Assembly: GCA_023819145.1 (NCBI GenBank)
Contig: JAMWCW010000006.1
Coordinates: 16,973-80,972 of the forward strand
Direction of reading: 5' to 3'
Source of the DNA: Candidatus Omnitrophota bacterium
GTDB taxonomy: Bacteria; Omnitrophota; Gorgyraeia; DTHP01
Length of the DNA stretch: 64,000 bases
A model generated the notes under the pieces. The model did not search any database and was not told where the DNA came from. It saw nothing but the letters and a program-made list of their open reading frames with translations. The position numbers and the translations under genes are program-made. Shown piece by piece: positions 2,347 through 10,380 of this stretch (positions are counted from its first letter, which is position 1; the number at the start of each line of letters is the position of its first letter).

Positions 2347-2408
2347 CGGTGGGTTAAAACCTCCGAGAAAAACTATCTTTCCGCAACCATCCTTTAGAAC
2401 TTGCGAAA

Positions 2409-2469
2409 CCAGTAAGCAAACTCCTCGGGCCGCCCGAGTCTTGATCTCGGCACTCCGGATTTAAAAACC
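2409..2469 (-). repeat. Direct repeat of the tRNA-Lys 3' half plus 17 nt of downstream flank (about 55 of 62 nt identical to 2572-2635)
   Basis: ccagtaagcaaactcct[c/t]gggccgcccgagtct[t/c]gatctcggcactcc...ttaaaaa occurs twice in the same orientation about 160 nt apart. The second copy cannot fold into a full tRNA because no 5' acceptor or D arm is present. Confidence 0.7.
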
Positions 2470-2480
2470 TCCACTTCTTA

Positions 2481-2500
2481 GGAGGGGACTAGTCCCCTCC
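2481..2500. other. Perfect 20-nt palindrome/hairpin GGAGGGGACTAGTCCCCTCC between the two tRNA-Lys repeat copies. A second, imperfect hairpin is at 2526-2551.
   Basis: Read directly: ggaggggact agtcccctcc is self-complementary. cctgaaagg-N8-cccttcagg forms an 8 of 9 bp stem. Confidence 0.6.
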
Positions 2501-2588
2501 TAACGTTTCACTGTTCTCCGCTAATCCTGAAAGGAACTTCTTCCCTTCAGGCATCACTTCGAGTTCTTCGACCAGTAAGCAAACTCCT

Positions 2589-2661
2589 TGGGCCGCCCGA
2601 GTCTCGATCTCGGCACTCCAGGCTTAAAAAGCCTGTGCTCTACCGGCTGAGCTAGCGGCCC
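2589..2661 (-). tRNA. tRNA-Lys (anticodon UUU)
   Basis: Hand-folded cloverleaf on the minus strand: GGGCCGC-TA-GCTC-AGCCGGT-AGAGC-A-CAGGC-TTTTTAA-GCCTG-GAGTG-CCGAG-ATCGAGA-CTCGG-GCGGCCC-A. All four stems pair. The anticodon loop TTTTTAA gives anticodon TTT. The T-loop is ATCGAGA (A at position 54 instead of T). CCA is not encoded. Confidence 0.75.
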
Positions 2662-3275: not shown

Positions 3276-4581
<1,306 letters not shown>

Positions 4582-8658: not shown

Positions 8659-9586
8659 GTCTAACCTCCTCAATATACTTCTCTGCTGAGATTGCTGCTA
8701 GAGCTCCCTCGGCACAAGCATTAACCACCTGTTTCAAGTTATTCTTCCGCACATCTCCACAGGCAAAGATGCCTTCTTGTGAAGTTTGAAGTTTTTCGTC
8801 TGTAACAACAAACCCCTGCTCATCCAATTTAAGCATCCCTTTAACAAACTCCGTCTGAGGTTTTAAACCAACAAAAATAAATACTCCCTCACAAGCTATG
8901 AAATCTTCTTTTTCGCTCCTTAGATTCTTAACCTTTATCCCTTTTACTCTTTCTCCGCCTTCGATTTTCAAAACAACCGTATCCCAATGAACTTCTAAAT
9001 TTTGCAAAGCAAAAATTTTCTCCTGAAGAATCTTTGCTCCCCTTAACCTATCGCGACGATGGATAAGAAAAATTTTCTTCGCAAAGCGGCTTAAAAAAAT
9101 CGTTTCCTCCAATGCTGTGTCACCACCTCCTACCACCGCTATTTCTTTATGCTGAAACAAAGGACCATCGCAGGTCCCACAATAAGACACTCCCTTCCCT
9201 AATAACTCTAATTCGCCAGGAACCCCCAATTCTTTATATCGCGTACCCGCTGCAACCACTACTGCAAAAGACCGATAAATTTGCTCTTCTTGCGTGGTAA
9301 TTATTTTTTCTTTACCCTTTATGTCTATTTCAATCACCTCAGCCTCTTTAAACTCTGCACCAAATTTCTCTGCTTGTTTCTTCATTTCTTCAGCAAAAAC
9401 ATAGGAACTTACAGGTTCACTAAAACCTGGATAGTTCTCTATTCTTTGGGTAAATAATAACTGGCCTCCGAAAGAAGTCTTTTCTAAAACAAGTGTTCTG
9501 AGGCGAGCTCTCCCTGCGTATATCGCACAAGAAAGGCCTGCAGGTCCTCCACCGATAATAATCAAATCATAAATGTCTTCTCTCAT
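8651..9586 (-). CDS. trxB: Thioredoxin-disulfide reductase
   Basis: 311 aa, FAD site IIGGGPAG, redox-active CGTCDG, NAD(P)H site GGGDTA. Confidence 0.9.
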   Translation of the reverse strand: MREDIYDLIIIGGGPAGLSCAIYAGRARLRTLVLEKTSFGGQLLFTQRIENYPGFSEPVSSYVFAEEMKKQAEKFGAEFKEAEVIEIDIKGKEKIITTQEEQIYRSFAVVVAAGTRYKELGVPGELELLGKGVSYCGTCDGPLFQHKEIAVVGGGDTALEETIFLSRFAKKIFLIHRRDRLRGAKILQEKIFALQNLEVHWDTVVLKIEGGERVKGIKVKNLRSEKEDFIACEGVFIFVGLKPQTEFVKGMLKLDEQGFVVTDEKLQTSQEGIFACGDVRKNNLKQVVNACAEGALAAISAEKYIEEVRHG

Positions 9587-10380
9587 TCTATGATCTCTAT
9601 CTGGCTGGGATGTCTTACGACTATCTCCGGGCCTGAATAATATTTAATTTTACCACATACCTTTATTTTTTTTCCAATATAATATGTAGAAGGTTCTATT
9701 TTAGAGGAGAAAAAATACTTTAAGTCGTCCCTGAAAATGGCTATTTTAAAATCATTCTTTTTTGCCTGCCCAAAATTCAAGATTAATACCTTTTCCTGTT
9801 CTTTTACTTTACTCACTCTACCCACAACCTCTGCCAATTCTCCAATATGATTCTTTGCTTCTTCAGCATTAATACTGCCTTTTGCATATATCTTCCAAAT
9901 ACCGCGTTCCTCCTCTCTTGCTTTTTTCTGAAGAGAAACAAATTTATCCACATATTTAACATTTGGCGGCAAAGTATAAAGGAAGGCAAGCCCTTCCTCA
10001 ATGAGCTTGGCATTAACAAGTGTATCATCTACAAAAACGTAACAAAGAAGTCTTCCGTATTTATCTTTCTTTTCGAGATCGTATTCCAAGCGAACCCATT
10101 TTTTCTCTACCAACATCTGATTCAACTCCTTTGCCTCTAAGGCAAAAGGTTGAGGAGCATAAACCCATTTATCTTTCTCCTTTTTTCTTACCTCTGGAGT
10201 ATCTATGCCAATATAACGTATAACTTTTTCTCCCTTTATAACCACTGTATCTCCATCGATAACCTTCTCTACAAAGGCTTTTTTAGGTAAGCCTAATTCA
10301 TGAAAGAAATTTGATAAAGAAATAATTACTAAAGCACATAAAATATTTCTTAATTTTAACATCGTCTCTAAAAATCCCAA
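9583..10380 (-). CDS. Secreted thermonuclease (SNase-like) with a C-terminal OB-fold-like domain
   Basis: 265 aa. It has a signal/TM N-terminus and staphylococcal-nuclease motifs (VIDGDT, IRYIGIDTPE, YGRLL.YVFVDD). Its stop/start overlaps trxB (ATGA). Confidence 0.7.
   Translation of the reverse strand: MGFLETMLKLRNILCALVIISLSNFFHELGLPKKAFVEKVIDGDTVVIKGEKVIRYIGIDTPEVRKKEKDKWVYAPQPFALEAKELNQMLVEKKWVRLEYDLEKKDKYGRLLCYVFVDDTLVNAKLIEEGLAFLYTLPPNVKYVDKFVSLQKKAREEERGIWKIYAKGSINAEEAKNHIGELAEVVGRVSKVKEQEKVLILNFGQAKKNDFKIAIFRDDLKYFFSSKIEPSTYYIGKKIKVCGKIKYYSGPEIVVRHPSQIEIIE

Follow-up and report, generated by a model that had tools for sequence, protein, structure and literature searches.

The window analysed here, a stretch of 64 kb from a metagenome-assembled genome (MAG) of an uncultivated member of the Omnitrophota, had a G+C content of ~37%, and its archease and ribosome recycling factor (RRF) were 100% identical to Omnitrophota MAG proteins in NCBI. 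On the minus strand, the order was rpsB-tsf-pyrH-frr, tRNA-Lys(UUU), the feature under study, archease and rtcB (Table 1). No integrase or recombinase was found among the genes neighbouring the feature (frr, pyrH, tsf, rpsB, archease and rtcB). CCA was not encoded in the window tRNA genes (ends at 2589 and 59067).

Table 1. Positions of the features described in the 64-kb window.
Feature	Position	Strand	Description	Basis
frr	3266-2703	minus		
tRNA-Lys(UUU), intact	2589..2661	minus	73 nt, no encoded CCA	ARAGORN; Rfam RF00005, 58.6 bits
Upstream repeat copy	2571..2630	minus	tRNA positions 32-73 (2589-2630) and 18-nt 3' trailer (2571-2588)	repeat finding, probe search
Inter-repeat module	2468..2570	minus	103 nt, longest ORF <=22 aa	alignments, nhmmer, ORF list
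Hairpin 1	2526..2551	minus	CCUGAAGGGAA-GAAG-UUCCUUUCAGG, 11 pairs, one G.U on tRNA-sense strand	folds, pair counts
Linker	2511..2525	minus	ATTAGCGGAGAACAG, conserved; consensus MTTAGSGGAGAACAG	alignment
Hairpin 2	2478..2503	minus	perfect 26-nt palindrome TTAGGAGGGGACTAGTCCCCTCCTAA	repeat finding
Downstream partial copy	2408..2467	minus	without tRNA positions 1-31	repeat finding, probe search
archease	2343-1927	minus	same strand as tRNA-Lys	
rtcB	1878-415	minus	same strand as tRNA-Lys	
tRNA-Phe(GAA)	59141-59067	minus		
Copy of tRNA-Phe 3' end	58917-58897	minus	perfect 21-nt copy, CGATACCGCCCCTCGGCATTT, 168 nt downstream	

The tRNA-Lys duplication and the module it encloses

Repeat finding revealed a direct repeat of 60 nt (2571-2630 vs. 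2408-2467), identical at 55 of its 60 positions (92%) and with a start-to-start distance of 163 nt. The upstream copy consisted of 42 nt of the tRNA, starting at the first anticodon-loop base, and the 18-nt trailer. An earlier, sequence-only reading of this DNA had described the 3' half of the tRNA plus 17 nt of flank as duplicated about 160 nt downstream with ~90% identity; the duplication was real, but the flank measured 18 nt. A 30-nt probe of the T-arm and acceptor, with up to three mismatches allowed, matched the two repeat copies alone in the 64 kb and nothing in 100 shuffles. Of the five mismatches between the copies, three affected the anticodon-stem strand, a fourth T-loop position 57 and the fifth the discriminator, where G73 replaces A73 downstream; the 18-nt trailer did not differ between the two copies in the window. 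The downstream copy comprised the anticodon loop, the diverged anticodon-stem strand, the variable loop, the T-arm, the acceptor 3' strand and the 18-nt trailer. It received no tRNA call from ARAGORN or Rfam and, because of its mutated anticodon-stem strand, T-loop and discriminator, cannot be a working tRNA part. The A73-to-G change in this truncated copy formed a perfect 6-bp hairpin (CTCGGG-CGG-CCCGAG) with a T-rich stretch (2424-2438, minus) just upstream of archease. A terminator scan gave two weaker sites, 2485-2468 and 2438-2424, vs. 0.6 expected; hairpins 1 and 2 had no U tract.

The segment between the copies had a conserved core of ~90-105 nt, made up of hairpin 1, the linker and the 26-nt palindrome. 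The palindrome, which had been recognised as a perfect one of 20 nt, grew to a perfect 26 nt upon re-examination and had its sole occurrence in the 64-kb window here. The other hairpin, previously credited with 8 of 9 bp, existed as well but was stronger than claimed, with the 11 pairs listed in Table 1. In the alignment, the linker resembled the left arm of the palindrome, TTAGGAGGGGAC, and the linker motif TTAGGGGAGAAC and TTAGGAGGGGAC together resembled a 12-nt motif present twice in direct and once in inverted orientation. The 121 nt of trailer and module folded with a z-score of -3.6 relative to shuffles. Repeat finding, together with inspection of the insert ends in a relative (locus L015, see below), revealed no terminal inverted repeats of the insert, the inverted repeats being the two internal hairpins alone.

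Other descriptions of the segment were tried and rejected. A tandem duplication of the whole 163-nt unit was discarded, as the sequence past the second copy was not module-like (score 22 vs. shuffles 18.4 +/- 3.6). The left flank was also considered as what remains of a tRNA 5' half, belonging to a second tRNA gene interrupted in the D-loop, but local alignments were non-significant (p = 0.14-0.99). A small protein, MSEGK(K/N)FPSGLGEN..., starting at the module core in all instances was rejected since an 8-nt indel shifts its frame in loci L005 and L015; this ORF also had no usable ribosome-binding-site spacing, and its start codon in locus L013 was GTG.

Homologous modules and empty sites in relatives

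Syntenic loci in relatives were reached through homologue searches with archease and RRF, and homologues of the module were found in three further Omnitrophota lineages, namely at tRNA-Lys in L005 and L015 and at tRNA-Thr(UGU) in L013. In L005 (archease 67% identical), hairpin 1, the linker (GCTTAGGGGAGAACAG) and the 26-nt palindrome lie behind tRNA-Lys and are followed by a perfect 26-nt copy of the tRNA end. L015 was found by a linker-pattern scan of genome contigs and has frr-tRNA-Lys, the module and a perfect 34-nt copy, consisting of the tRNA end and a 10-nt trailer. A palindrome scan of metagenomes led to L013, which belongs to the Omnitrophota as judged by folP relatives and has the core behind tRNA-Thr(UGU) and, next to it, 31 nt copied from the 3' part of this tRNA. 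The module was therefore present at two tRNA targets, Lys and Thr. With nhmmer, four instances in all, including that of the window, were recovered at E = 3e-31 to 2e-28, every genome being a MAG or a metagenome contig; no further copy was detected in ~250 kb of related Omnitrophota DNA, and the 64-kb window held one. Such a single-copy occurrence in ~250 kb is unlike a proliferating repeat.

Conservation of the module was well above neutral expectation: pairwise identity was 0.84-0.94, vs. 0.54 at third codon positions of frr in the same lineages, where synonymous sites were near saturation. These values therefore point to constraint or recent spread, not to decay. The palindrome of L005 and L013 was identical to that of the window, and L015 had two changes, one in the loop and one in the stem leading to a G.U pair. 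Hairpin 1 of L013 carried a compensatory AU-to-GC change. The genes downstream of the module differed by instance (archease-rtcB, an MNT/HEPN pair, or others), and in L015 and L013 the module lay away from rtcB.

The duplications flanking the module, of 26, 31, 34 and 60 nt, had no fixed length. The repeats spanned tRNA position 32 to +18 in the window, 50 to +2 in L005 and 50 to +10 in L015; at the tRNA-Phe gene of the window (see below) the span was 57 to +2. The truncated copy matched the tRNA variant of its own lineage (GAGACUCGG-type in the window, GAGGCUCGG-type in L005 and L015) and its own trailer. The trailer common to both copies was 18 nt long in the window, 10 nt in L015 and 2 nt in L005, and its sequence differed between lineages. 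L005 and L015 also retain, upstream of the perfectly matching block, the decayed remains of an anticodon arm (AAGGC...GCCT). That each copy matches its own tRNA and trailer would be expected if the shared segment had repeatedly undergone gene conversion or repeatedly served for excision and re-insertion, but not from passive decay. In L013 (2204-2237), CCA was found after the truncated tRNA-Thr copy and TTTTTT after the intact gene, as if the fragment were the displaced original end.

Two separate MAG assemblies, L018/L015 and L019, were identical at 4,265 of 4,268 positions (three mismatches) and were further distinguished by one precise 167-nt indel, equal to a 133-nt unique insert plus one perfect 34-nt repeat. 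L018/L015 is the filled and L019 the empty member of this clean pair, which concerns the tRNA-Lys copy of a relative and not the window's own strain, and collapse of the 34-nt repeat by a MAG assembler would give the same picture, as would a simple deletion between direct repeats with no dedicated machinery. In L020 and L022 (RRF 80 and 74% identical, respectively), the order was tRNA-Lys-archease-rtcB; the archease promoter region follows the tRNA, and neither the module nor a partial tRNA copy was present behind tRNA-Lys. Of the module in L002, the first 40 nt alone remain, fused to the archease start. The tRNA-Thr(UGU) genes of L024 and L026, relatives of L013, were without the module. In the closest relative, L001 (RRF 89%), the same site holds an ORF for an 86-aa GIY-YIG protein (PF01541, E = 1.4e-15), flanked by 65-nt repeats that correspond to the last 12 nt of the tRNA and a 53-nt trailer; the site is therefore a recurrent insertion target. 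Given this presence/absence pattern across relatives, the module behaves like a separate unit that can be inserted and removed. The sequence-only reading had asked whether some relatives carry an island between the repeats: no large island occupied the tRNA-Lys site in any relative examined, whereas the GIY-YIG insert of L001 does lie there.

Two minor observations were made at the same site. The contig of L017 (3565-3699), a close relative of L001, stops 40 nt past tRNA-Lys within a 65-nt repeat of the L001 type, which suggests that the contig end is an assembly break caused by that repeat. A toxin-antitoxin-like MNT/HEPN pair came directly after the tRNA-Lys region in two lineages (L005 1301-1830; L015 from ~2900 downwards and L019 from 3680 onwards), and in L005 this pair separates tRNA-Lys from archease.

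Partial self-copies at other tRNA genes

A script detected partial self-copies near 8 of the 16 tRNAs in these Omnitrophota loci, six of the eight at an offset of 158-169 nt. These include tRNA-Phe of the window, for which a spacer containing hairpins, unrelated in sequence to the tRNA-Lys module, precedes the copy listed in Table 1, making this a second case of the same architecture. At tRNA-Gly(UCC), in L013 (365-683) and L026 (12369-12600), a different G+C-rich module was followed by a partial copy of the tRNA-Gly 3' end. Its spacer was rich in GCGAAGC/GCGAAAGC-type motifs and had the short motifs TCGAAGGG, GCGAAGCGAC and GGAGCCGAAGGC in common with the Lys/Thr module. At tRNA-Met of L013 and tRNA-Ser(GGA) of L001, upstream copies of 5' parts were found instead. 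Evidently, the tRNA loci of this clade are hot spots of small inserts, each of which keeps the gene whole by duplicating part of it.

The mini-copy upstream of tRNA-Met in L013 (9852-10085, minus) consists of positions 1-19 fused to the last 7 nt and a 2-nt trailer, and a strongly structured spacer of 139 nt (z = -5.25) lies between it and the intact gene; the offset is 158 nt. In L001 (9415-9921), an ORF of 84 aa with a GIY-YIG domain (9596-9850) lies between the copy of the tRNA-Ser(GGA) 5' part and the intact gene (9829-9921). This copy, of 50 nt, comprises the 5' part and upstream flank (9415-9464), and a 57-nt tandem duplication is present in between. The two GIY-YIG proteins of L001 (84 and 86 aa) had a mutual identity of 33%. 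Furthermore, a group I intron (Rfam RF00028, 104.7 bits, 958-1210) was detected in the anticodon loop of tRNA-Tyr in L013 (905-1835, minus). Immediately upstream of it lies an ORF of 201 aa with a helix-turn-helix (HTH) match (1802-1197), with a 29-nt direct repeat of the tRNA-Tyr 5' part on either side. Membership of this 201-aa ORF in a nuclease family was considered and dropped, as it gave weak HTH matches alone and no assignment. In L024 and L026, tRNA-Tyr was uninterrupted.

Nature of the module

From comparison of the sequences, we give an even chance to the view that the feature is a gene-less, precisely excisable, att-like mini-insertion module targeting tRNA genes in Omnitrophota, and as such a putative mobile element. 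It has the look of a mobile element rather than that of a dead scar because of its recurrence at other tRNA genes and its clean absence from a near-identical genome. A module of ~100 nt would insert in the 3' region of a tRNA gene and end up between two direct copies of the tRNA 3' part, so that an intact gene would remain upstream and a truncated copy downstream. Insertion and excision would both occur as at classical att sites, through recombination inside the stretch of tRNA sequence that is duplicated, with a recombining segment of probably 26-60 nt that would extend from the anticodon loop or T-arm to 0-18 nt beyond the tRNA end. The catalysing enzyme, for which the module has no gene, would act in trans; its binding sites may be the palindrome and the similar motif of the linker, both of which look like such sites. 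With divergence at 5 of 60 repeat positions, the window copy would be an older insertion; its truncated copy is non-functional, and gene conversion or re-insertion would have kept it similar to the live gene. Three of the four instances are orthologues, sharing the tRNA-Lys locus, so that the case for mobility between targets depends on the single tRNA-Thr instance. The interpretation given in the sequence-only reading found partial support: the topology, the filled/empty pair and the GIY-YIG ORF between equivalent repeats in L001 agree with its att-like footprint, but a scar left by an excised or deleted island does not fit.

No recombinase, transposase or nuclease gene was linked to the module. 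GTDB species genomes, JGI metagenomes and IMG/VR were scanned with exact patterns, and these scans retrieved L013 and L015 alone as further occurrences of the module and revealed no autonomous parent element. In IMG/VR, patterns for the palindrome, the linker, hairpin 1, a degenerate palindrome and the tRNA-Lys 3' end gave no match. Matches in L010-L012 (palindrome) and in L014 and L016 (linker) were set aside as chance matches in unrelated contexts. A phage or plasmid origin was rejected, since blastn against phages and plasmids returned nothing meaningful and the IMG/VR patterns nothing. A genome-wide REP-like repeat was likewise rejected, the palindrome being unique in the window and nhmmer giving no further copies in related loci. 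Rfam 15 reported tRNA alone at gathering thresholds and, over 2330-2720, nothing credible at E <= 10, and a known RNA family, ribozyme or Y-RNA-like RNA was discarded on this basis. No published description of such modules was found in the literature.

Integrases at classical tRNA att sites reportedly use sublocations at the anticodon loop and the T-loop, and the boundaries of the module repeat (anticodon loop, T-arm) presumably match these. As in tRNA-targeting integrative elements, the insert lies between an intact tRNA and a downstream direct repeat of the tRNA 3' part, this repeat runs from the anticodon loop or T-arm to a few bases past the gene, and precise loss restores the site. Unlike in these elements, the insert measures 103-133 nt, codes for nothing and has no linked integrase, the same module core occurs with two different tRNA ends, and neighbouring cases sometimes duplicate the tRNA 5' part. 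The CIMEs of Streptococcus thermophilus are att-flanked ICE remnants without recombination genes, kilobases long and derived from known ICEs. The module resembles them in being non-autonomous, flanked by attL/attR-like repeats and presumably excised only by an enzyme acting in trans, but it is ~100 nt long and has no known parent. With MITEs and small bacterial repeats (REP/BIME, Correia, RPE) it shares a short, non-coding, hairpin-rich make-up and presence/absence polymorphism. In contrast to them, it has no terminal inverted repeats, its duplication is 26-60 nt rather than 2-10 nt long, and it occurs as a single copy in the DNA examined and exclusively at tRNA genes. The double-hairpin elements of Allomyces mitochondria are short, mobile, non-coding units of two hairpins that occur in many copies and lack a tRNA-end duplication. 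The module is similarly short, non-coding and built of two hairpins, but it carries a tRNA-end duplication and has no sequence relation to these many-copy elements of a eukaryotic organelle. A free-standing homing-endonuclease cassette that brings a replacement end of the invaded gene is represented by the Allomyces mitochondrial atp6 element. The segB gene in the tRNA cluster of T4 and T6 belongs to the same comparison (PMC2330249; PMC13096335). The module is like such cassettes in that a duplicated end keeps the tRNA gene intact with a displaced fragment downstream, that GIY-YIG genes are tRNA-associated and that in L001 its site is taken up by a GIY-YIG ORF; it differs in that the window module has no endonuclease ORF and no similarity to the L001 cassette.

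The strong conservation of the module would fit a functional RNA too. As a conserved, structured 3' trailer, co-transcribed with tRNA-Lys and freed by tRNA processing, it would be maintained by selection rather than by mobility, and the transcript would include the truncated tRNA copy as a T-arm-like end or a processing signal. We regard this explanation as unlikely, though with an appreciable chance of being correct. All 88 of the 88 pair cells in both hairpins were standard on the tRNA-sense strand; one double compensatory change was present, and the three single changes all gave G.U on the sense strand and A.C on the other. Folding z-scores ranged from -3.2 to -3.9, the orientation was that of the tRNA in every instance, no promoter-like site was found between tRNA-Lys and the module, and the identity far exceeded that of synonymous sites. 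However, the stems are nearly invariant in sequence, beyond what structure alone requires, and covariation was non-significant with four sequences, being equalled in 135 of 500 shuffles. The want of an Rfam match even at E <= 10, the variation of the downstream genes between instances and the close relatives without the module (L019, L020, L022, L024 and L026) speak against an RNA function, which moreover leaves the copy of the host tRNA end after each instance unexplained. A structured RNA and a mobile module are not mutually exclusive. Rather improbable, in our judgement, is an ORF-less remnant of a homing-endonuclease-type cassette, or repair of a nuclease break by segmental duplication at the tRNA gene; the cassette would have brought in a replacement tRNA 3' end, displaced the native end downstream and later lost its nuclease gene. 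ORFs between partial tRNA duplications in this clade are nuclease-like or DNA-binding and never integrases, as exemplified by the GIY-YIG ORFs at tRNA-Lys and tRNA-Ser of L001 and the 201-aa HTH ORF beside the group I intron of L013, and the downstream copy in L013 with its encoded CCA, next to an intact gene without it, fits a displaced native end. A precedent is SegB, a GIY-YIG enzyme whose gene lies among the T4 tRNA genes and which cuts tRNA genes (PMC2330249); in T6, segB drives tandem amplification of a tRNA-segB unit (PMC13096335). Yet a decaying remnant should not stay 84-94% conserved or keep a perfect 26-nt palindrome, the module has no detectable similarity to the L001 cassette, and its short ORF is not frame-conserved. 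The GIY-YIG proteins of 84-86 aa, at 33% mutual identity, correspond to the catalytic domain alone and are site-specific enzymes only putatively.

An inert scar, in which a large island or prophage was almost wholly deleted and attL and attR were left 103 nt apart, had been one of the two explanations offered in the sequence-only reading. We now consider it very improbable, even though the repeat, running from the anticodon loop past the tRNA end, is like classical tRNA att sites: the 103-nt interval is a discrete module, 84-94% conserved and far better so than synonymous sites, and independent deletions would not leave the same 100 nt behind both the tRNA-Lys of three lineages and the tRNA-Thr of another. 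None of the relatives examined carried a large island there. The other explanation, a small RNA or decoy tied to archease-rtcB, finds no support as a functional link: L020 and L022 have tRNA-Lys-archease-rtcB without the module, and in L015 and L013 the module lies away from rtcB. The position of the module upstream of archease-rtcB is a matter of inherited gene order (synteny), not a functional link. The same operon would be central if the copy were a spare or split tRNA half, joined by RtcB-archease to the tRNA-Lys 5' half after cleavage in the anticodon loop. A copy that begins precisely at the anticodon loop and lies 64 nt ahead of archease-rtcB, as in the window, would suit such a role, but three of the five anticodon-stem bases do not pair with the tRNA 5' strand, the discriminator is changed, the anticodon loop of the copy is destroyed in L005 and L015, and relatives have the same operon but no copy; we find this explanation scarcely credible.

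With regard to the preferred reading as an att-like mobile module, a wider proposal can be made tentatively, and we consider it possible but doubtful: Omnitrophota may harbour an undescribed class of non-coding, non-autonomous mobile modules of ~100-200 nt that home into tRNA genes. This class would include Lys/Thr-, Gly-, Phe- and Met-type families, with a target duplication of 20-60 nt that lets the gene survive and a tRNA-to-copy spacing of ~160 nt, and it would be mobilised in trans, the small GIY-YIG proteins from such sites being candidates. Partial tRNA copies are routinely taken as tombstones of lost islands, whereas here the material between the copies is a conserved unit. If confirmed, such a unit would rank with the smallest known elements that insert site-specifically, and tRNA loci in a large uncultivated phylum would have it as a recurring feature; it would also call for caution in the use of tRNA fragments as markers of past island integration. 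The 26-bp palindrome and the tRNA T-arm core provide a concrete substrate for an enzyme search. For the window itself, the suggested functional tie to the RtcB RNA-repair operon is removed. RtcB in the window was 487 aa long, vs. 998-1505 aa in several close relatives (loci L002, L005, L007 and L020), the long versions giving Pfam matches to intein-splicing and LAGLIDADG domains; rtcB was intein-free in the window, L001 and L022.
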